11,190 nucleotides of DNA from Candidatus Heimdallarchaeota archaeon (lineage in GTDB: Archaea > Asgardarchaeota > Heimdallarchaeia > Heimdallarchaeales > Kariarchaeaceae). Positions 34 through 11,190 of the stretch are shown in pieces (positions within the stretch are counted from its first letter, which is position 1; every line of letters begins with the position of its first letter). Location of the stretch: assembly GCA_015523565.1 (NCBI GenBank), contig WAKA01000076.1, positions 1-11,190 of the forward strand, read 5' to 3'. The notes beneath the pieces were generated by a model. That model was not told the DNA's origin. It made no database searches and saw only the letters and a program-made list of their open reading frames with translations. A program made the translations under genes and the position numbers.

Positions 34-369
34 CTTTCAATCTAGATATCCTAGAATCCTCTATTGTAACCAACATTGTACATGAGAGACAATATCTCAA
101 AAACCATCTTTCAATCTAGATATCCTAGAATCCTCTATTGTAACCCCGTTCCTACCTACAGCTATTATTAGCCTCAAAACGACTTTCAATCTAGATATCC
201 TAGAATCCTCTATTGTAACTATTGACTTTGTTGCCGGGGATTTTCTATGAGTTTGTCTTTCAATCTAGATATCCTAGAATCCTCTATTGTAACAATAAAA
301 ACAATTCATCCCGTAACTCAGTATCCCTTGGTCTTTCAATCTAGATATCCTAGAATCCTCTATTGTAAC
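34..369 (-). CRISPR. CRISPR array: 5 identical 37-bp repeats, 4 complete spacers and a probable partial spacer at 1-33
   Basis: Repeat CTTTCAATCTAGATATCCTAGAATCCTCTATTGTAAC at 34-70, 108-144, 183-219, 257-293 and 333-369. Unique spacers at 71-107 (37 bp), 145-182 (38), 220-256 (37) and 294-332 (39). The minus-strand repeat GTTACAATAGAGGATTCTAGGATATCTAGATTGAAAG has the typical GTT...ATTGAAAG ends and a TCTAG-GATAT-CTAGA hairpin just before the 3' handle. Confidence 0.99.
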
Positions 370-463
370 TGCGGTCAAATCCTTGTCGAGAAGGGCTGAG
401 GACGTGATTTAGGAATCAAATTTTTGTTTATCACACGTGACGCACCTTCCTTAAATACCTGCC
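370..463 (-). promoter_or_regulatory. CRISPR leader (94 bp) between the cas1 stop and the first repeat
   Basis: Non-coding gap adjacent to the 5' (GTTAC) end of the first repeat in the inferred transcription direction. It has AT-rich tracts, and ACGTGA occurs twice (402-407, 435-440). Confidence 0.8.
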
Positions 464-1441
464 TCATTTCAGGATGAGGGGGAGGTATTCGGTTTTTGAC
501 AGGAGCCATGATGTAAGTTTTTGCACCTGTAGCTGGATGATGTTTCTCAAGGTCATTTCTCCCTTTTCATTCTTATGTTTTTTTCTCAGGAGTTGTTCAT
601 AAGCGGCGAGGTATTTGCGTTTGCCTTCGTCAGTCAGGTAGTAACCAATGCCTTCTTTTGTGAAATGCTTCCTTCCCAGTTGCTGTTTGTTGAGCATGTT
701 GACTGTGAATCGTTCAATGACAGGACGGAATTGTTCAAGTAAGTCAAGAACAAGTGATTTGCGACCGTGGCGGAATTGGTGAAGGAAGCCCCTGTATGGG
801 TTAAGACCGTAGTATCGGACATGGGGTTCGATTTCAGAGGTCATTAGGACATATCCCAATGAAAGTAGGCTGTTTGCTATGTCCTTTGGAGGTCTTTTGC
901 TTCGTCCATTGAAGAATGATGGGGTTGAAAGCACTTGTGGAAAGGCGTTCCAGTACGCCGCGGCGGCATGACCTTCCATGCCCCTGAGTGAGTCGATGGA
1001 ACGAGCGTTTGGGATTTTCTTCAATGCTTCCTGCAGTTGATCAGTGGGGATTGACTTTCTCTTCAGCATTGAAATCCTGCTTGTTATTTGTCCCGCAATG
1101 ATTTGCTTGATGAGGGGCAGGGCGTCTCGATCGGATGTTTGAAGGTGTTGTTCAAGGATTTTGTACGACATGATCTCCTGCCCGTAAAGCATTCCCTTGT
1201 ATTTTCCATGTGTACTGAAATAATGGACAGTGATGCCATTTCTCAGGCAATGGTCGATCAACTGGTAAGAGAGGTGAGCGGCACCGAAAATGCATATACG
1301 GGAAACGGAATGGAGAAGAGCCTGACCCAGTGTTTCTCCGTTTTGGGAGACTTCAAGTCTTTTGTTTTGGATTGTCAGGGATGTTCCCTGTGTTGTGATA
1401 TAAATGCTGGAGGTGTCTTGTAGGGTTATTGTGTCAGTCAT
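464..1441 (-). CDS. cas1: CRISPR-associated integrase Cas1
   Basis: 325 aa. N-terminal YITTQGTSL; catalytic motifs LRGMEGHAAAAYW, FNGRSKRPPKD.ANSLLSLGY, GLNPYRGFLH and SLVLDLLEQFRP. GGAGTGA RBS upstream. Adjacent to the leader. Confidence 0.98.
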   Translation of the reverse strand: MTDTITLQDTSSIYITTQGTSLTIQNKRLEVSQNGETLGQALLHSVSRICIFGAAHLSYQLIDHCLRNGITVHYFSTHGKYKGMLYGQEIMSYKILEQHLQTSDRDALPLIKQIIAGQITSRISMLKRKSIPTDQLQEALKKIPNARSIDSLRGMEGHAAAAYWNAFPQVLSTPSFFNGRSKRPPKDIANSLLSLGYVLMTSEIEPHVRYYGLNPYRGFLHQFRHGRKSLVLDLLEQFRPVIERFTVNMLNKQQLGRKHFTKEGIGYYLTDEGKRKYLAAYEQLLRKKHKNEKGEMTLRNIIQLQVQKLTSWLLSKTEYLPLILK

Positions 1442-1447
1442 TTCTGT

Positions 1448-2023
1448 TCACTCCATTTGAATTGTTGTCTGGATTGTTTCGACCCAGCAGAAGGTTCTGT
1501 TTGCGCAGTTTTTGCATTTGTTTGGGTTAGTTGTGCGCTTGAACTCAGTATCGTTTCTGATTCCCCTTATTGTCTGGATTGTCAACTGTTTGAGATAGTT
1601 GTCATAGCTTTTTTGGTATCGTTTTCTGGATTCATGGCAGTAGATTTCGAGGTGGGCTATATCATACCCCTCATATTCAAGGCAGAGAGCGTATGCACAG
1701 AGCCCTATCCAGTCAGGCAGGTAGTTTGGATTGCTGTTCTTCTTGAATTCGACGGGAATAAGTCTTCCGTCTTGGGTGATTTCGACGAGGTCAATGATTC
1801 CGAGGATTCCAAGTTCCTCGTTTGCCAGTTCGATGGATATGCCAAAGAGTTTTCGTTTTTTGTTCCTGTATTTCTTTCGGTCGATGCGCTTATGGATGAG
1901 TTCACCTTTTATGAGTTCGACCGTGGGGTCAGGGGGCACCTGCAGGATGACTTCAAGCATGAACTGTCGGGGGCAGAATGCATATTTTTGTATTTTTCGG
2001 ATTGGGATTTGGAATAGGTTCAT
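1448..2023 (-). CDS. cas4: CRISPR-associated exonuclease Cas4
   Basis: 191 aa. YAFCPRQ, GELIH and RecB-like GIIDLVE...PVEFKK motifs; C-terminal CKNCANRTFC completes the four-Cys Fe-S site. GAGGT RBS upstream of the ATG. Confidence 0.96.
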   Translation of the reverse strand: MNLFQIPIRKIQKYAFCPRQFMLEVILQVPPDPTVELIKGELIHKRIDRKKYRNKKRKLFGISIELANEELGILGIIDLVEITQDGRLIPVEFKKNSNPNYLPDWIGLCAYALCLEYEGYDIAHLEIYCHESRKRYQKSYDNYLKQLTIQTIRGIRNDTEFKRTTNPNKCKNCANRTFCWVETIQTTIQME

Positions 2024-2047
2024 ATTTATGACCTCTGTAAATCGGTT

Positions 2048-2317
2048 GTGTTCATTATTGTCATGTATGACATCCGCGAAGATGACAGGAGGTCGAAATT
2101 ATACAGGCGGATGAAGCAGGAAGGGGCAAGGGTACAGTATTCGGCGTTTGAGCTTGAAATAACAGAGCAAAGGCTATTGATCTTGAAGGAGGACATTCGA
2201 GGGATCATTGATGAAAGAGTGGATTCGGTAAGGATGTACAGACTCTGCCGCAGTTGTATGGAGAACATTGAAGTCATTGGAACGGATGACAAGGAAAGTT
2301 TCACCTCGATTTTTTGA
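2048..2317 (+). CDS. cas2: CRISPR-associated protein Cas2, inverted relative to the operon
   Basis: 89 aa, GTG start. IIVMYDIREDDRR, RVQYSAFE and DSVRMYRLCRSC are diagnostic Cas2 motifs. The 3' end overlaps the cas3' 3' end convergently (2301-2317). Confidence 0.96.
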   Translation: MFIIVMYDIREDDRRSKLYRRMKQEGARVQYSAFELEITEQRLLILKEDIRGIIDERVDSVRMYRLCRSCMENIEVIGTDDKESFTSIF

Positions 2318-4409
2318 ATCTGCAATTTATTTCATTGTAAAGGTTCAGGGCTGCGCCGAAAGAGGTTTCCACCCCTATGATGTTTTGATCCCATCCAATG
2401 AGTTGGATGAACATTGCGTCGGCGAATTCAGAAAGAAAGTATTCCAGATCCTCTTTTGTTTTTCCTTGCCTGAGTCGGAAAGTGAGACCGAAAGAAAGGA
2501 ATCCTACGGGTTCTGTTTCATCATCATCATTTGCGTAGACAATTGGGACGGGAGAGGTGTTATTTGTTGAGGCGGTGAAAACAACCTTTCCGAACCTGAG
2601 GGAGATTGATGCAATAGGGTCAGGCAGGTTTTTGAGGGTATGTATATGCCATTCTTTCCTGAATTGCTTCCAATGTTCAGCGGAGAGGGATTCCTTGTCG
2701 AATTTGGCAGAGATGTATTGCATTGGTTTCATGTAGATTGCATTGCCATATTGAATTGGGAGTGTGCCTAGATCAAACAGGGGCCACTTTGGCTTGAAAA
2801 ACCCAGGGATTACGGCATGCTCAGTAATGATCATGAGTTCTGAGACAGTTCGCAGAGCGTAAAGCGGGTTGTCGGAAAATCGTTTGCCACCGTCTTTTGA
2901 TCTGTAATAGATTTGTGGGAGGGTGGTTCTCAGAGTCATGGAGTTTAGCAGGAGCTTTTGCACGAAGGTTTTGTATTTTTCGAAGAGACTTTTTGCTTCC
3001 TCAACAGTGGGCAATGAAGAATGGGAATCATAATTGGATCCGTCAAACATTCTACAGTTCAACTCCAGTTTAATGAGAGTAATCCCTTCCCATAGCTTGT
3101 TAAGATAGTAATGCATGGCGAATATCAGGTCAGATGTGGTAGCTGTGAACATGCTTCCAGGAATTTTTTTGTCGATATCCATGAGATATTGGTAAAACGG
3201 ATTGATACCCTTATAATGGGATTGTGGAGGGGATTCAATCAAGTTTGAGTACCAATCTTTGCCTTTGTAAGGTGCAGGGAGGACATGAACAATTGCCTCT
3301 TCGTCACCGTATCTTCCGACTCTCCCGATTCTTTGGATTAAGTTTGGGGAGGGACAGCTTTCGGTGATAAGGACTTGGAATTGATCGCTGACGCCTACTT
3401 CGGCACTGCTTGTTGCAATTACCAGAACCTTTTGCTTTTGTGCATTTTTGATGTTTTTATACTCATTCCATCCGTTGAATACCCTGAAGAGGTTGTATGG
3501 TGCCTTTTTACTATGGAAATCGTTAGCCATCCTGTAAGCCCGTCTTCTTGAATTAAGGATCACAATGATCCTGTCTTTCTCATTCAATTGGTTTCTTATG
3601 ATATTTGCCAAGTAGCTGTCATGATCATCCATGTCGCAGGGGGGATGTATGAACAGCCTTAGGGATGAGTGTTTGCCAATACCAGTTATTTCTTTATTGA
3701 CAATGCCCCTTGTTTTAAGAAGATCGAGGGCATAATCAGGAGTTGTTGCAGAGAAGAAGCTATGTGGGATTTTCGGTGGGGTTCCTTCCAATGTTTCAAG
3801 GATAAGGCGTTCTCGTTCAAGATTGAGGACTACATTTTGCAATGCAAGAGGATGGAGGATATGGATTTCGTCAAAAGCTTTTGGGGCGAAGAGTTGCCTG
3901 TAGAAGAATTCCGCCTTATATGTTTTGTTTGACTTGTTGGGAAAATGGAGGTATGCCCATTTGTCAATTGTGCCCACTACTCCTAAGGAAGGGGTAAATC
4001 CAATGTACTCTTCTTCTTCAGATTTGATTGGATAAAATTCACCCAAGGTTTTCAGGAGATTTTTCACCTTTCCTGTTGCAGTTCCCGTTTGAGCTTTCAG
4101 GCCCATTTTTTTGAAACGGCTGTTTAAAAGTTCATGATGTTGGTTGAGAAGGGCATAGGTTGGATAGAGTGAATAAAAGAAGCCATGCCTTGTATCGTCC
4201 TGATGTTTTAGCCAATTGATCATTCCCAATTGAAAGATGTCCCTTTTTCCACCACCAGTTCCAACGGTACAGACAATTCCCTCCCCATTCATTATAGCCT
4301 CAATTCCTTTTTTTTGGTGGACGTATGGATCATATGGGGAATCTGTGAATACATTGCCTTCGAATTTTGTGGATCTTGGTTGTTCAGGTCCAATATGAAT
4401 TTCGATCAA
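2301..4409 (-). CDS. cas3: Cas3' SF2 helicase without an HD domain
   Basis: 702 aa, TTG start with GGAGG RBS, overlapping the upstream stop (TTGA). Motifs: Q PYVHQ, I GTGGGKR, Ia LYPTYALLNQH, II FDEIH, III SATT, IV ILNS, V ATSSAEVGVS, VI QRIGRVGR. The helicase begins about 30 aa from the start, leaving no room for an HD domain. Confidence 0.92.
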   Translation of the reverse strand: MIEIHIGPEQPRSTKFEGNVFTDSPYDPYVHQKKGIEAIMNGEGIVCTVGTGGGKRDIFQLGMINWLKHQDDTRHGFFYSLYPTYALLNQHHELLNSRFKKMGLKAQTGTATGKVKNLLKTLGEFYPIKSEEEEYIGFTPSLGVVGTIDKWAYLHFPNKSNKTYKAEFFYRQLFAPKAFDEIHILHPLALQNVVLNLERERLILETLEGTPPKIPHSFFSATTPDYALDLLKTRGIVNKEITGIGKHSSLRLFIHPPCDMDDHDSYLANIIRNQLNEKDRIIVILNSRRRAYRMANDFHSKKAPYNLFRVFNGWNEYKNIKNAQKQKVLVIATSSAEVGVSDQFQVLITESCPSPNLIQRIGRVGRYGDEEAIVHVLPAPYKGKDWYSNLIESPPQSHYKGINPFYQYLMDIDKKIPGSMFTATTSDLIFAMHYYLNKLWEGITLIKLELNCRMFDGSNYDSHSSLPTVEEAKSLFEKYKTFVQKLLLNSMTLRTTLPQIYYRSKDGGKRFSDNPLYALRTVSELMIITEHAVIPGFFKPKWPLFDLGTLPIQYGNAIYMKPMQYISAKFDKESLSAEHWKQFRKEWHIHTLKNLPDPIASISLRFGKVVFTASTNNTSPVPIVYANDDDETEPVGFLSFGLTFRLRQGKTKEDLEYFLSEFADAMFIQLIGWDQNIIGVETSFGAALNLYNEINCRFKKSR

Positions 4410-5092
4410 AATATGTTTTCCTCCAATTTTGGATTGATTTCCACATTGACATTGATTTGGTTGAGTTGTAATTTCAAATCTGAATGAAAGTATTCAGACA
4501 GCCGACCATAAAGCCATTTTTGGTTTTCATCAATTTTTCCTGAAAGGAAGTCCCCAAGATTGAATACTAGACTCTCTTCTGTTTGGATGCCTTCTATTTT
4601 TGCGCTTAGATGATCCGCCAATACAATCAATATCCGTTCAATTCTCAAGCTGAGACCATCAAGCTGTTTTTTGGGATGGTGGTTTCTCATCACCCATTTT
4701 GCAAGTGTATCATTTCTCTTTAGGGTGATTCCGAAATTTTCCAATAATTCAGCTTCAGATTGATGGAGGGAAGGGTCAAAAAGCCTGTCATCCGCATGAT
4801 CCCGATAATTTGTCCAATTTTTGTGGTTATTTTGCTTAAACCATGTTTGCCATTCTTCAGTATTTTTGCCATCATCATGGTGGAGAACTGCATAGGTAAG
4901 CTCATCGGTTGGGAAATGATTGTCTCTGCTTTTTAGGTCAACTGTTGAATAAAATTCATGGAAAAGGATTGCAGTAAGCATGCAATGACTGGAAAGATAT
5001 GTGTAAGGTCTGGCAAATGGTTCGTGATCCAATAAAGTTAGAATATATTGATTTTTTCCAACTTTGAGTGTGATGTTTCGAGAAACCATCAA
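4406..5092 (-). CDS. cas3'': Stand-alone Cas3''-type HD nuclease (start TTG 5092 or ATG 5089)
   Basis: 228 aa. Cas3-type metal ligands in order: ARP...LSSH, LHHDDGK, DHAD, MRNHH, LADHLSA. Coupled to cas6 (TGATG overlap) and to cas3'. Confidence 0.88.
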   Translation of the reverse strand: MMVSRNITLKVGKNQYILTLLDHEPFARPYTYLSSHCMLTAILFHEFYSTVDLKSRDNHFPTDELTYAVLHHDDGKNTEEWQTWFKQNNHKNWTNYRDHADDRLFDPSLHQSEAELLENFGITLKRNDTLAKWVMRNHHPKKQLDGLSLRIERILIVLADHLSAKIEGIQTEESLVFNLGDFLSGKIDENQKWLYGRLSEYFHSDLKLQLNQINVNVEINPKLEENIF

Positions 5093-5889
5093 GAAAGCCT
5101 CGCGTGGATTTTCCCAAGCCCTATGGTTCTGCCATGACCGACATTTGTCCAGTTTGCGATTTTGACTAGTTTGGAGATTGTTCCATTAATTTTTCCTTGA
5201 AAAACGAGTCTTCCCTTATGTCCAGTGTAGATTATTTGTTTGTCATCATTATGGACAGGGAATCGGATTGCCGTGAGTGATGATTGCTGATCCAATAAGC
5301 GAATTGGCTCACATGCCTTTTTGAAATCGTCAGGACTTATTTTCTGATCGGACACCATATTGTAAATTCTGAAAGGAGTTCTCATTATTTTTTCAAGGGA
5401 AAGCTCGTGCATTCTTAACTCTTTACCATATCCTTCTTTGAGAAAGAAGAGGGGAGTCTTGAATGTCATTTCCAATTTTGAGAATTTTGCTTGACTTGAA
5501 TTTAAGGTTTCTTCAGGCAAATATTTGGTGTTGGTAGAAACAATCTTGAAACGGTACTGTCCAATTTGGATTGTTTTTCGGTTCAATTCAGAGAATCTTT
5601 TTAGGGCTTTTCTCATGTCCTTTCCAAAAACGACAATGTCAAAGTATCCATGGACATGAGGAGGAACAACAAATGTTTTTCGTTCTTTTTTCATTCCAGG
5701 AGGAAATTGAATAGGGTTAATTGAAAATGGCTTAGGTGCATTGGAGTCATGCAATGAATTCCAGAGAGGTTTCATTGTCTTATATACAAAAGCCCTAAGG
5801 AATTCGCCATGCTGGAATGGCACATAAGACATTTTTATTGGTCGGATAGACACTCTAGTACTTGCAATCATAGGTCGCATTTCAATCAC
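5089..5889 (-). CDS. cas6: crRNA-processing endoribonuclease Cas6 (true start may be ATG 5880)
   Basis: LHDSNAPKPFSINP, MTFKTPLFF and the C-terminal Gly-rich loop NVGHGRTIGLG. GGTGA lies 5 nt upstream of ATG 5880. Confidence 0.95.
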   Translation of the reverse strand: MIEMRPMIASTRVSIRPIKMSYVPFQHGEFLRAFVYKTMKPLWNSLHDSNAPKPFSINPIQFPPGMKKERKTFVVPPHVHGYFDIVVFGKDMRKALKRFSELNRKTIQIGQYRFKIVSTNTKYLPEETLNSSQAKFSKLEMTFKTPLFFLKEGYGKELRMHELSLEKIMRTPFRIYNMVSDQKISPDDFKKACEPIRLLDQQSSLTAIRFPVHNDDKQIIYTGHKGRLVFQGKINGTISKLVKIANWTNVGHGRTIGLGKIHARLS

Positions 5890-7142
5890 CTGAATCTATC
5901 TATTGGAACCATTTCCCCACCATCCATATTCAGATAGAAGAAATTGTCCAAAGGGATGCAATAACCATCGACAACAATGGCATCTCCAGAATATTTTCCC
6001 TTGAGAATCGCATATCTCTCTGTTCTTTCAATCAATTGTGTGATCTCCATATCAGGAAGCATTTCCATTGGATATTGCAGGACAGTTGTTTCCATTTCTC
6101 GGACTTGCTGGATGTCGGCAGGGTGAAATTCCCCTAAATGGACTACAGTCTCATTGGTAGAGGCAAAGGTTCCAAAATGTAAGACACGCTCAAATCTTTT
6201 TTGGATTTGAGGGATGTCATCCTTGTTGCATACAATATACCCATGAAATTCTGTTTTGGGACGAATATATTCAATTGTTCCAAAATTTGGGAAGGGGTCA
6301 TTTGATCCTTTTCCATATATTGCAAGGTCACCGTATTCCGTCCTTGTGGTTGAGTAGTGATCCCATCCATACATGTAAAGATTAAGGTCTGAAAGGATAG
6401 CATCAGACACATTTCCAGAAATCCATGGTTTAAGTTCATTGGGTCGATTCGAGGGATTTTCCGACTTCCATTGTGCAATCATCTGTTCAATTTCAAATAA
6501 TCCAGGAAGTGAGCCAGAATGATTTGGAACGAGATGTTTCATCACCGCATTCATGTCAATAGTTTTTAGGGAAGTTTTTTGTGAATAGAAAACAATTTGA
6601 GGACATGAATCATAGAGTGTATGGTGAACAGCATCCCTTATCTTTTTCATCAACCATGATGGGTTTCGTTGAGCTTTTTTCCAATCTAGGTTCCATTTGT
6701 CTGTTTTCTGGTCTTCTTTCACATTAGCCACATCAGATACTTTGAGATGCCCTGTAGAAACAGCGAGGCTTATCAATGCCTTTACAGGAGTGCCAAATAC
6801 ACTGGTTGTTGTATATGTGGCAGATTTACCTGCAAAAACGGACTGCAGAAGAATACCGCCCATTGGCGCGATTAAATTGTAAACTCTGGTTTCAAGATGT
6901 TCCGAGAAGGAAAGGGGGTGAGAGGGAATTGCAGGAGTAAGATAAAATCCCTCAGAAGGCCAAAGGTAGCTTGAACTCTTTTTTATAGTATGACGAAGAT
7001 TGCTTGGACGGGATCCGAAGAGGATGGTGGATGATGATACATGGGTTTTGTAAACCTCATAATCACCACCCCTTTTTACGTTCCTGTTGAGATGAAGATT
7101 AGTCATGGGGAACAGGGAATATTTCGCCACATGAAATTTCAT
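5886..7142 (-). CDS. cas5: Cas5-group RAMP, Csc1 (type I-D)-like, with a large insertion
   Basis: 418 aa, positioned between cas7 and cas6. GFYLTPAIP, FPNFGTIEYIRPKTEF and VLHFG resemble Csc1 conserved blocks. GGTGA RBS and ATGA overlap with cas7. Confidence 0.75.
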   Translation of the reverse strand: MKFHVAKYSLFPMTNLHLNRNVKRGGDYEVYKTHVSSSTILFGSRPSNLRHTIKKSSSYLWPSEGFYLTPAIPSHPLSFSEHLETRVYNLIAPMGGILLQSVFAGKSATYTTTSVFGTPVKALISLAVSTGHLKVSDVANVKEDQKTDKWNLDWKKAQRNPSWLMKKIRDAVHHTLYDSCPQIVFYSQKTSLKTIDMNAVMKHLVPNHSGSLPGLFEIEQMIAQWKSENPSNRPNELKPWISGNVSDAILSDLNLYMYGWDHYSTTRTEYGDLAIYGKGSNDPFPNFGTIEYIRPKTEFHGYIVCNKDDIPQIQKRFERVLHFGTFASTNETVVHLGEFHPADIQQVREMETTVLQYPMEMLPDMEITQLIERTERYAILKGKYSGDAIVVDGYCIPLDNFFYLNMDGGEMVPIDRFR

Positions 7143-8128
7143 TCGGTTTCTTCACCTTTTGGGGTTTTTTTGTCAAGGAATTCTATCCAATCTGCCCCCA
7201 TTAGCAGTTCATCATATTTCTGATATACATAAGCAAGCAGATCCTCATTTTCATCAAAGCTGAACTGCACAACGGTTGCATTTGGGGGAAAGAGTCTATC
7301 AGGAGTATTAAGGAGATCAAAATCCTCTGCCAAGTCTATATTTGTAGCTATGTTGAGAGGGGATTCATTTGAGACAGCAGTTAATTGCATTTTAAACCGT
7401 CCATTTCTACTTGAATAAGCTCCGACACCGTCGACTTGACCAACTTCATTCAATGCCTTGATGGAAGCAAAGAAGTCATATTTCGAGGGATCCCGAATCA
7501 TGAGTTTGAATGGAAATCGAGTTCCTGGTTTAACGAATTCATAGGTTGCAAAACTTGATGAGCTGCGTGAAGACATGCCACCTCTAGAAGGAGAATCTAC
7601 TGTGTTTAAGACACCAGCTTGATCAAAATCCAGATAACCTGCCACGCAATCATTTGCATGTTCAACTGAAAACATGTCTGGCAAGAACCATCTGGATCTT
7701 CTAGCAAACCTTCCAGGACTGAGACTACCTAGTGAGACACAGACTACACAGTTTCCACATAGGTTTTCACTTTTTCTGCATGACTTGACAAAGGATAATT
7801 GTCTTTTTGTTCGTTCGTCTAGACCATTTTCCTTATTTTTGAAAGTATCTTGATCATAAATATCTCTCAGATCCATTAGCAATCCGTCACGTATTTTTGT
7901 CAGGATCTTTATTCCTCTGAGTTCTGCACGGACGGTGCCATTTATATCTTGTTTATCAACAACTTGGTGGTTGCTTTTGTCACCCACTGTTGACTTGAAG
8001 ATTCCTCTTTGGGTCATTTCAATGTAACCCACGATAGTCAAAATTCTTCCAGACCAAAGCCCTGCCTTTTCAGGGAGGTCAGGCAATTCATCAATAATTC
8101 CAGAAAGTTTATTTTCGATATCATTCAT
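7139..8128 (-). CDS. cas7: Cas7 backbone subunit, Csc2 (type I-D)-like
   Basis: 329 aa from ATG 8128, which has a GGTGA RBS 10 nt upstream and an ATGAATGA overlap with the upstream gene (the track start at 8173 is probably too long). Zn-binding CRKSENLCGNCVVC, SRWFLPDMFS, EFVKPGTRFP and GVGAYSSRNG match the Csc2 pattern. Confidence 0.85.
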   Translation of the reverse strand: MNDIENKLSGIIDELPDLPEKAGLWSGRILTIVGYIEMTQRGIFKSTVGDKSNHQVVDKQDINGTVRAELRGIKILTKIRDGLLMDLRDIYDQDTFKNKENGLDERTKRQLSFVKSCRKSENLCGNCVVCVSLGSLSPGRFARRSRWFLPDMFSVEHANDCVAGYLDFDQAGVLNTVDSPSRGGMSSRSSSSFATYEFVKPGTRFPFKLMIRDPSKYDFFASIKALNEVGQVDGVGAYSSRNGRFKMQLTAVSNESPLNIATNIDLAEDFDLLNTPDRLFPPNATVVQFSFDENEDLLAYVYQKYDELLMGADWIEFLDKKTPKGEETE

Positions 8129-8510
8129 TTTGTTTTTCACCTGCCAGATTGGAAAGATTGCGATAAATGACAAACATTGAAATGTTGATCGCGTTTCTTT
8201 CGTCTATATTTGGAAGGGTATTTTTGCAGTATTCTTGAAATTCGTCAACTTTAGACATATCGAGTTTGGACAAGTCCATTCCCTGTCTTGACAATTTAGT
8301 CATGAATTCTGCGATACCTTGTTCGATGGTTGATTGCTTGCGGATAATTCTGAAGAAATCACGCAAGGGTGCTTCATAGCTGCTTTCCTGTCGTTTAGCC
8401 TTGATTTCTTTCCATTTGGCCAATGGCTTGTTATCATTTTCAACAGGAAGGCCATACAAAAATTCAGTAAATTTTGTTACAAATTCCATTTCCTTTGAAT
8501 CTTTTGTCAT
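8121..8510 (-). CDS. cas11: Putative Cas11 small subunit from an internal in-frame start in the large-subunit gene
   Basis: The minus strand reads GGTGA-AACCAATT-ATG at 8523-8508, the same RBS used by cas7, cas5 and cas6. It gives a 129-aa helical-looking product (MTKDSKEMEF...). Internal Cas11 translation is established for types I-B, I-C and I-D. Confidence 0.65.
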   Translation of the reverse strand: MTKDSKEMEFVTKFTEFLYGLPVENDNKPLAKWKEIKAKRQESSYEAPLRDFFRIIRKQSTIEQGIAEFMTKLSRQGMDLSKLDMSKVDEFQEYCKNTLPNIDERNAINISMFVIYRNLSNLAGEKQNE

Positions 8511-9956
8511 AATTGGTTTCACCATTTCATAATAGGTTTCAACTAGGGTTTTGAAATCATACCTTGCCTTTGACTTTTTATTTGTGTTTGATTTCAAATT
8601 TTTCTTTTTCTTCGAATCTGAGTTGATTTCAGCGTATGTAAATCTCATTGACTTTCCAAATTCGGAAACAGGATTTTTTAGAAATCTTTCAATCTGCCTC
8701 CATCTAATTAAAGGTTTAGCAAATTTTGCTTCAGATCTGAAGAAAGGATGAACACTCCCAATTTTTTCTTCAGCGAAAGCCATAAGTCGATAAACAGAGG
8801 AAGCCTTAGATGTATCGATCAAGTTAAGACCAATGTCTGTGACTTGGAACAACCTGATTTTTTTGCCTAGTGGTTCGCCATCCAAGGTTAGGCTTTCAAG
8901 AGCTTTAACGATTAGTGAATAAAGGAGATTTGCCTCTTTTTTCAATCTAAGGTTTGGATCAACATAATTGTTCATTTTTATGTTTTTGCGTTGTCTTTTT
9001 GTCTTGTAGTTTAATACAAGTCCAGAAGCATTAATTATAAGAAATATCTTTCCATTGGCTGAGATGATTTTGAATGATCCCTCATCAATTTCATCAATTA
9101 GATCCTCCAAATCAAATTCATCTTCAGTAAACTCCAATTGGACGATTTCATTTCCATCAAATTTTGTCCTTAATTTTGTATCGGATTTTCCAGAGACAGT
9201 TTTTGAATAATTGGGAGGATGTTTGAAACGATATGCAAGATTGATGGCAAGTCTCTCGATTGGTTCATTGTCCACCCCTGTAACTTCAAAGATAACCAGA
9301 AAATGTTTTTCAGGGGGTTCAAAATCATGTATTACAACGGTTTCTATTATTTCTTTCCAAGTGCATATTGGGCAAAGAAGATTTAGATACGAATTTCCCA
9401 TCCGAGACCTTATTTTTTCAGGATCAGTTTCAGTCAACGCGAATCTTAACCTGCCTGGTGTATATTTGTATTGGGTTGGCCATACATTTTTGAAAATATG
9501 AGGGGTACGGGGTCTAGAATCCCCAAAAAAATCAAAGAATCCTCCACATTCATCACATCTATTTCCTTTGGCTTCAGGAGTTATTTGCATTTGGTTTACA
9601 ATTGTTCCCAAAAAAGAAACAAATTCCGGAAAATAGCGGTTCGAGTTTTGTAATTCATGGGATATTTCCATTAATGTGTTTGAGGAAAAAATTTGATGGA
9701 ATTTTGGTTTTTTGGATGAATATATTGCATGAATTTTAGAACGGGAAAGTGAATAGCGAGTCCAATCATTATTGAATGGGTTATTGCCCTTTATTAGAAG
9801 ATCAGGAGTAAGGTTTTTCTTTAGTTTTTCCAATTCATCCTTATTGACATCAATAAATGGTTCCTTTATGGTTTCTCGTCCCAAGGCATCTGCAACCAAT
9901 TGGCGAAATATTGCATCATGTACATAAGGCATTGAGGGAAAGTACAAACGAAACAT
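8121..9956 (-). CDS. Effector large subunit (HD-less Cas10d-like or Cas8-like, CxxC-CxxC)
   Basis: 611 aa from ATG 9956 (the track extends to TTG 10025). First gene of the operon and coupled to cas7. CDEC (9557-9546) and CPIC (9374-9363) form a likely Zn site, and the C-terminal region looks helical. No HD or GGDD motif seen. Confidence 0.75.
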   Translation of the reverse strand: MFRLYFPSMPYVHDAIFRQLVADALGRETIKEPFIDVNKDELEKLKKNLTPDLLIKGNNPFNNDWTRYSLSRSKIHAIYSSKKPKFHQIFSSNTLMEISHELQNSNRYFPEFVSFLGTIVNQMQITPEAKGNRCDECGGFFDFFGDSRPRTPHIFKNVWPTQYKYTPGRLRFALTETDPEKIRSRMGNSYLNLLCPICTWKEIIETVVIHDFEPPEKHFLVIFEVTGVDNEPIERLAINLAYRFKHPPNYSKTVSGKSDTKLRTKFDGNEIVQLEFTEDEFDLEDLIDEIDEGSFKIISANGKIFLIINASGLVLNYKTKRQRKNIKMNNYVDPNLRLKKEANLLYSLIVKALESLTLDGEPLGKKIRLFQVTDIGLNLIDTSKASSVYRLMAFAEEKIGSVHPFFRSEAKFAKPLIRWRQIERFLKNPVSEFGKSMRFTYAEINSDSKKKKNLKSNTNKKSKARYDFKTLVETYYEMVKPIMTKDSKEMEFVTKFTEFLYGLPVENDNKPLAKWKEIKAKRQESSYEAPLRDFFRIIRKQSTIEQGIAEFMTKLSRQGMDLSKLDMSKVDEFQEYCKNTLPNIDERNAINISMFVIYRNLSNLAGEKQNE

Positions 9957-10103: not shown

Positions 10104-11190
10104 ATGATTTCCCAATTTCAAGTCAATAATGAGGGAATAATAGATGCCATAAAGAAATTCATCAACCAAGACTATGAAAGTTATATAGACATTACCAATG
10201 CATATGAAATTTTCATCCAAGATTTGAAATGTAATGTAAGCTTACCAGAAGGATTGGAAGGGAAACCAATATGTTCAAAGAGTTCACAATCTGATAAACC
10301 GTTTTCGTTGTTGCCAAGATTTGGGGCCTGTAGAGTGACAATACATGTCCGATATTATAAGGACAATATTGCAACAATATTAATCGCAACTAAAGCTTTG
10401 TTTTTGGTTTTGATGCAAAACACACCAAATTTTGTGAGAGAAAAGTTTGATACGATGCAAGAGGTTGCATTGTCGATAGTTTTCCTTCTTGCAGAGAATG
10501 AAGGGACAAAGAAAAAAATATGGGACATGTGGACAGAATTACGAACCCAAAAAAGTTACACAAATCATGTTTTAAAGATACGAAAATTTCTAAGGTTCAT
10601 GTATAGAACTCGAAAGGAAAATGTAATAAGGAACATCTTGAATCTATCAGGGATTTCACCCCAAAATTTTAAGGATTATCCATACAGTGCAATTCTTTTT
10701 CCGAGACTGAAGGAAGCACACTATAAAGTCATGCATATAGAAACGAATGTGGAGGCTAAACAAGGTGAGAAAGCAAATCTTCTTGGAATAAGCCAGTCAC
10801 GTTATTCCCAGCTTTACAATGAGCTTATGTATCAGCAAGTCATTGTTCCATTTGTGGAAATTCGTCTTGAAAGGATTGGATTCAAGCGTTATTTTATTTA
10901 TATTATTCTTGAAAAGGATAGGGAAAAAGAAATTTTGCAGAGTTTCAGTTATATAGATGAATTGATAGCCATACAGATTTCACCAGAAAAAAAGATCTAC
11001 ATAATAATTTTTTATAAGCCAGCAAATACAAAATATCCAAAATTTCCAGACCATAGTGAAGTTATTGATTGGGGAGAAATCATTCCAGGGAATTCATTTC
11101 AATATGATGCGGTTGGTTTACACAATATCAAGGACAAACGATTTAAGGAAAAATTTACGTTGAAAAACCATTTTGAACCTATGAACGAGC
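10104..11190 (+). CDS. Partial ORF (at least 362 aa, 3'-truncated): Lrp/AsnC-like winged-HTH protein, putative transcription regulator
   Basis: Hand translation is open from ATG 10104 (MISQFQVNNEGII...) to the window end. Residues about 220-270, QGEKANLLGISQSRYSQLYNELMYQQVIVPFVEIRLERIGFKRYFIYIIL, fit the Lrp/AsnC HTH-wing-linker pattern. It is absent from the track because it has no stop in the window. Confidence 0.75.
   Translation, partial: MISQFQVNNEGIIDAIKKFINQDYESYIDITNAYEIFIQDLKCNVSLPEGLEGKPICSKSSQSDKPFSLLPRFGACRVTIHVRYYKDNIATILIATKALFLVLMQNTPNFVREKFDTMQEVALSIVFLLAENEGTKKKIWDMWTELRTQKSYTNHVLKIRKFLRFMYRTRKENVIRNILNLSGISPQNFKDYPYSAILFPRLKEAHYKVMHIETNVEAKQGEKANLLGISQSRYSQLYNELMYQQVIVPFVEIRLERIGFKRYFIYIILEKDREKEILQSFSYIDELIAIQISPEKKIYIIIFYKPANTKYPKFPDHSEVIDWGEIIPGNSFQYDAVGLHNIKDKRFKEKFTLKNHFEPMNE

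Follow-up and report, generated by a model that had tools for sequence, protein, structure and literature searches.

The DNA analysed here, which we call the window, is the whole 11,190-bp contig WAKA01000076.1 (C76) of Candidatus Heimdallarchaeota archaeon, from a metagenome-assembled genome of 3.57 Mb that is about 90% complete, and its positions 34-9956 are likely to hold a type I CRISPR-Cas system that is complete, probably functional and of a very rare lineage without a name. It is probably a mosaic, with Cas7 and adaptation genes closest to those of subtype I-D, a Cas8-like large subunit (LS) and a Cas3 that is split as in I-A. The locus is best read as an unclassified type I variant, possibly at the level of a subtype. 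An earlier note on this DNA had called the system non-canonical, and it is indeed the case that no described subtype profile set covers it.

The gene order claimed there, LS-cas7-cas5-cas6-HD-cas3'-(cas2 inverted)-cas4-cas1-array, is confirmed by the open reading frames (ORFs) together with family scans, as is the coupling of effector genes through their start and stop codons. At junctions read directly the overlaps are 8 nt for LS/cas7 (ATGAATGA), 4 nt for cas7/cas5 (ATGA), 1 nt for cas6/HD (TGATG) and 4 nt for HD/cas3' (TTGA); at cas5/cas6 the overlap is 4 nt (GTGA), with an alternative cas6 ATG 6 nt past the cas5 stop. The cas3' and cas2 genes are convergent and overlap by 17 nt, cas2 and cas4 are divergent with a 24-nt gap between them, and the locus lacks a separate cas11 gene. 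The labels 'Cas5' and 'large subunit' had been guesses from position; the first holds by fold with no sequence match to go with it, and the second finds no family match. The hallmarks of type I are in place: a Cas3 helicase and an HD nuclease (here split), a Cas7, a Cas5 fold, a predicted Cas7-Cas5 contact, a Cas6 and an array.

The layout exists in five sequence-distinct versions, those of the window, of L006 and L007 (one version on two contigs), of L009, of L010 and L011 (again one version) and of L013, with cas2 inverted in all four loci whose contig covers the cas2 region. The search for equal synteny elsewhere, proposed as a check, has yielded four versions besides that of the window, and because the identical order recurs at an LS identity of 35-66% to the window copy, the layout is neither chance nor misassembly. 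An exhaustive HMMER search of 1.84 billion representative proteins with an LS profile returned its own family only, with two other cluster representatives, and among 185,579 species genomes there were two with LS relatives besides the window genome. A word-based search with the Cas7 profile gave two more loci beyond those from the LS search; neither it nor a homologue search with the HD profile gave anything beyond the five family members, and a scan of JGI metagenomes with LS patterns found no relatives. In 301 Asgard genomes the Csc2 scores are bimodal, the canonical form reaching 114-152 bits (17 genomes, most of them from a single family) and the variant form 36-50 bits in the window's genus only, in three of the four genomes sampled there. 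The sequencing runs that contain the window DNA are hydrothermal-vent metagenomes of one study, and the sequencing-run search listed no RNA runs containing it. As to provenance, the LS of L006 (GCA_003696825.1 RFHV01000299.1) is identical to that of CAZYCQ010000074.1 (L007, L064), a contig placed in the window's Asgard genus, and the NCBI label of L006, 'Methanobacteriota archaeon', is probably wrong.

Judged by profile comparison, Cas7 is a distant relative of Csc2 (Cas7d). It scores 41.4 bits with Pfam PF18320 (cut-off 25.5) and 43.4 bits with TIGR03157 (cut-off 38), a weak match that covers the central part only and lies well below the canonical Asgard range just given; the claim of an I-D-like Cas7 is thus upheld, weakly, at 41-43 bits. 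Alignment with Asgard Cas7d by hhalign (85.5%, E 5.7e-6, 100 columns) centres on a C-x6-LCxxCxxC motif. Model matches of this Cas7 are limited to Csc2 and type IV Csf2, and Pfam, NCBIfam and PADLOC give no match of Cst2/Csh2/DevR type.

The LS is harder to place. Pfam, NCBIfam, PADLOC and PDB sequences give no match to it, the family finds nothing in Pfam even at E <= 10, and no Cas10d, Cas8 or Cas11 profile is matched. It is without an HD domain, its C-terminal ~130 aa are helical, and it carries a conserved CDEC(134-137)...CPxC(195-198) module. Its residues 113-200 align by hhalign with Cas8b, represented by an alignment of Asgard proteins that PADLOC calls Cas8b/Cst1, at 85% and E 6e-6, and there both CXXC motifs fall in register and at a similar distance from the N-terminus. 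The comparison with Asgard Cas10d gives E 0.055, on an unrelated stretch, that with Cas11d gives nothing and that with a second Cas8b family, A12, no alignment; in a control of Cas8b against Cas10d the cysteine modules were not aligned. Language-model features in the ESM Atlas place the LS nearest to Cas8b1/Cst1 and Cas8a1 clusters, at 0.93-0.95 (0.94-0.95 for Cas8b). Asgard Cas10d reaches 100 bits with the Cas10d model, whereas the LS of this locus matches none. On this limited evidence the LS is better called Cas8-like than Cas10d-like.

To judge from its predicted fold, and from that only, the 418-aa protein is a Cas5. It finds no sequence match in Pfam (at E <= 10 also nothing), NCBIfam, PADLOC or PDB and no Csc1 profile match, and hhalign against Asgard Cas5d gives E 0.56; of the 'I-D-like Cas5, enlarged' that had been claimed, the enlargement stands and the likeness to I-D lacks a basis in sequence. 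An AlphaFold2 model built from five sequences has a poor overall confidence (pLDDT 56), with confident blocks present. The best fold match in the ESM Atlas is a cluster of I-B/HMARI Cas5, the fold fits Cas5 of I-A, I-D and I-B about equally, and Foldseek with the model against PDB returned nothing at E <= 0.001, its weak rows being enriched in chains of Cas5 and other RAMP proteins. The Cas5 core is interrupted by a helical insert of roughly 150 residues (~118-266). Prediction of a Cas7-Cas5 complex scored 0.78, against 0.00 for the best control. Of 80 solved complexes 58 attain that mark, as do 2 of 110 mismatched pairs; between runs at least 38% of contacts agree, the partners have pLDDT of at least 70, and the predicted Cas7 contacts of Cas5 lie in core segments, outside the insert. 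Because Cascade structures are solved, such a pass may mirror likeness to known Cascades, and at the level of models it shows likeness to a Cas5-Cas7 pair and falls short of proving binding. PDB sequence searches with profiles of LS, Cas5, HD and Cas7 gave nothing meaningful. As a side observation, gene calling on the metagenome contig L012 (JGI 3300009702) divides the enlarged cas5 at 1151-2427 into two genes, of 198 and 206 aa, for which a frameshift, an error in sequencing or decay of the copy may be responsible.

The free HD protein keeps H35, HHDDGK70-75, H98, H109, HH137-138 and DH159-160 as conserved residues, and the non-permuted Cas3-type series of HD motifs is retained in all five homologues. 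Its PADLOC matches to models of Cas3 HD, Cas3g, the Cas10d N-terminus and Cas3b are weak and about equal. The translation of cas3' has the motifs GTGGGK, DEIH and QRIGRVGR and shows no subtype preference among Cas3' models. The HD motifs and the Cas3' domains between them bear out the claim of a free HD gene beside a helicase-only Cas3'.

How far is this from I-D? Our references were the Synechocystis structures 7SBA/7SBB and the canonical Asgard loci L035-L039, among which L036 has the order cas1-cas4-cas10d (882 aa, N-terminal HD)-cas11d-cas7d-cas5d-cas3'-cas6, with every protein of that order matching its own I-D model strongly. The locus departs from I-D in an LS that is not recognisably Cas10d and lacks the HD, which is a free gene; in a Cas5 about 160 aa longer with no Csc1 signal; in a cas3' that follows cas6, with the HD gene before it; in the inverted cas2; and, unlike the archaeal I-D loci examined, in having no separate cas11d. 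It shares with I-D a helicase-only Cas3', a 37-nt repeat with a GAAAG end and several features that weigh against our reading and favour instead a derived I-D ('I-D2'-type), in which the LS would be a Cas10d whose N-terminal HD became a separate gene and whose sequence diverged past recognition. These are the order LS-cas7-cas5-cas6, which is the I-D order; a Csc2-family Cas7 above its cut-offs; Cas1, Cas2 and Cas4 that score best or near best with I-D models; an HD protein that weakly matches the N-terminus of Cas10d (E 7e-4) and whose H and HD-K motifs hhalign sets in register with the Cas10d HD (E 0.024); and the commonness of canonical I-D in other Asgard families. Yet the LS is undetected by any Cas10d profile or alignment, is, even with the HD subtracted, some 280 residues short of Asgard Cas10d, and has a zinc module that aligns with Cas8b and not with Cas10d; the HD protein matches Cas3 HD models no less well than Cas10d, and Cas5 is without Csc1 signal. 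We hold such a derivation to be unlikely, and since the LS shows no Cas10d relationship and its sole outside signal is the Cas8b zinc module, the 'I-D variant' of the earlier note is too narrow a description.

With I-A (P. furiosus Cascade, 7TR6 and 9CRP) the likeness is the split Cas3'/Cas3'' only; there is no profile match to Cas8a, Csa5 or Csa2 in NCBIfam or PADLOC, the gene order is different and the Cas7 is Csc2-like. With I-B the locus has in common the CXXC-x57-65-CXXC module of Cas8b/Cst1 (PF09706 CXXC_CXXC), at a similar distance from the N-terminus, an LS in the same length range (560-720 aa) and the lack of a separate cas11 gene; it differs in that no Cas8b profile is matched and the LS similarity is limited to ~86 residues. 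I-B usually has a fused Cas3 and a Cas7 of Cst2/Csh2 type. Should one then think of an extremely divergent I-B (or I-A) whose Cas7 resembles Csc2 merely through a common zinc-knuckle region? Telling for this and against a mosaic are the sole outside similarities of the LS, to Cas8b/Cst1 and Cas8a1, the split cas3'/cas3'', a trait characteristic of I-A that some archaeal I-B systems have too, and the I-B/HMARI Cas5 that is the best Atlas fold match. Against it stand the lack of any profile match to Cas8a, Cas8b, Cas7a/b, Cas5a/b or Csa5, a Cas7 that matches Csc2 and type IV Csf2 models only, a gene order unlike both I-A and I-B, and an LS that does not align with Cas8b family A12; the explanation strikes us as very improbable. 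Two outcomes had been named in advance as counting against a new layout: that all subunits match one described subtype, which is not what was found, and that Cas5 and Cas7 lie outside Csc1/Csc2, which is the finding for Cas5 (no Csc1 signal) and not for Cas7. An unclassified mosaic is what we retain.

From the gene identities, catalytic motifs and synteny observed we infer the following for complex composition, DNA targeting and a Cas11. Most likely Cas6 would cleave at the base of the 5-bp repeat hairpin and leave a ATTGAAAG 5' handle. The resulting CRISPR RNA would be held in a Cascade with a backbone of Csc2-like Cas7, the enlarged Cas5 at the handle and the Cas8-like LS, which a Cas11-like product of an internal LS start might join. 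On R-loop formation the free HD protein (Cas3'') and the Cas3' helicase would be recruited to nick and degrade the target DNA, as in I-A with its split Cas3, and Cas1, Cas2 and Cas4 would acquire spacers.

The possible Cas11-like small subunit would come from an in-frame ATG (M483) ~129 codons before the LS stop, which has GGTGA 7 nt upstream and would yield a 129-aa helical protein from the C-terminal part. ATG and GGTGA are common to the window, L006 and L013 and persist where the amino acids encoded are not the same; at the equivalent start L010 has GAGG and L009 none. An internal start is the way in which Cas11 is made in I-B, I-C and I-D.

In the array, five identical repeats of 37 nt alternate with spacers of 37-39 nt; the minus strand reads GTTACAATAGAGGATTCTAGGATATCTAGATTGAAAG. 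In L006 and L010 the repeat is conserved in its TCTAG/CTAGA stem and its ATTGAAAG 3' end, with the loop variable, as is expected of co-evolution with a hairpin-recognising Cas6. An exact search in IMG/VR with the four spacers gave no protospacer, and no protospacer-adjacent motif is derivable for that reason. At least 20 more repeats, two to three positions off the window repeat, lie elsewhere in the same genome (G000) at C181:19659-20885 and C78:9007-9193 (L062, L063), where both arrays end at contig ends. That they serve another cas locus was considered and rejected, since the neighbouring genes have no cas-family match in a Pfam scan; those with Pfam matches are LRR, MCP, methyltransferase, TetR and epimerase genes. 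The two could be one orphan array split by the assembly or the distal part of the window array. Four further Cas1-family matches were seen on contigs C49, C12 and C173 of this genome (L002-L005); they may belong to other CRISPR types or to casposons, or be solo Cas1.

Features of the locus in the window, with the basis on which each is named
Feature	Position	Strand	Basis
Large subunit (LS), 611 aa	8121-9956	minus	ORF list and position
cas7, 329 aa	7139-8128	minus	Csc2-like by Pfam and NCBIfam
Cas5-fold RAMP gene, 418 aa	5886-7142	minus	fold level
cas6 endoribonuclease, 266 aa	5089-5889	minus	Pfam PF10040, 39.9 bits; several PADLOC Cas6 models
Free HD nuclease (Cas3''), 227 aa	4406-5089	minus	conserved HD motifs; weak PADLOC matches
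cas3' helicase without HD, 702 aa	2301-4409	minus	DEAD and Cas3-like_C_2 domains; many Cas3 models
cas2	2048-2317	plus (inverted relative to the operon)	Pfam Cas2, 73 bits; best PADLOC model Cas2d, 85 bits
cas4, 191 aa	1448-2023	minus	TIGR00372, 96 bits; best PADLOC models Cas4c and Cas4d
cas1, 325 aa	464-1441	minus	Pfam Cas1, 262 bits; Cas1d model full-length, 251 bits
CRISPR array, five 37-nt repeats	34-369	minus	cut by contig end
Probable leader between cas1 and first repeat	370-463	minus	position and repeat orientation
Possible internal Cas11-like product, 129 aa	8121-8510	minus	in-frame ATG (M483)
'Bridge' ORF antisense to cas2, cas3' end to cas4 start	2026-2325	minus	open frame in four loci

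The inversion of cas2 has an unusual accompaniment. Opposite the gene a frame is open in the window (on the minus strand) and in L006 (12468-12749), L009 (7676-7960) and L010 (11830-12702); this bridge frame runs from the cas3' stop, or a position just past it, to the start of cas4, to which it is joined in frame in L010. When cas2 was resampled synonymously the frame stayed open in 0.32, 0.048, 0.026 and 0.025 of trials, fractions that are not independent, the four loci being related. This suggests selection for ribosome read-through to cas4, i.e. translational coupling, or for a dual-coding stretch.

Upstream of the LS and divergent from it is a gene at 10104-11189 on the plus strand, which runs off the contig and is conserved with L006 3175-4758 (41% identity, E 3e-90). 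It has no family match and a stretch that looks like a helix-turn-helix by eye, and the equivalent position in L010 is occupied by a protein that is not related to it and carries a TrmB winged-helix domain. The divergent upstream gene may be a regulator of the locus.

No description of the layout was found in a review of I-D (PMC10212523), in the 2025 classification and supplements to it (PMC12669027) or in recent papers on Asgard and archaeal defence and viromes, a survey that did not cover a 2020 Asgard-variant paper in the CRISPR Journal, where prior mention is possible. Rare 'long tail' variants are expected in the 2025 classification (PMC12669027), which makes the present one a useful addition and no surprise. 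The LS, Cas5 and HD families are absent from the current typing profiles tested, and typing tools built on those sets would therefore probably leave the locus untyped or call it a partial I-D.

Type I-D is widely discussed as a bridge from type III to type I, in a scenario where the helicase takes over the HD of the large subunit and Cas10d is reduced to Cas8 (PMC10212523). A Csc2 backbone together with a small HD-less Cas8-like LS and a free HD is the combination that this scenario predicts, and the locus is on that account a concrete object for structural and phylogenetic tests. One may go further, at rather long odds, along the line of the evolutionary intermediate suggested in the earlier note, and see in it a surviving stage of the route proposed to lead from I-D with its Cas10d to type I systems based on Cas8, which would merit a subtype of its own. 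On this reading, which we doubt, the Csc2 backbone would be kept beside an already small, HD-less, Cas8b-like LS and a free HD gene next to the helicase, one fusion away from canonical Cas3, and additions specific to the lineage would be seen in the larger Cas5 and in the inverted, dual-coded cas2. A compact and complete type I system, with two unusual extras in the insert of Cas5 and the open antisense frame maintained opposite the inverted cas2, would be added from the archaeal group closest to eukaryotes.

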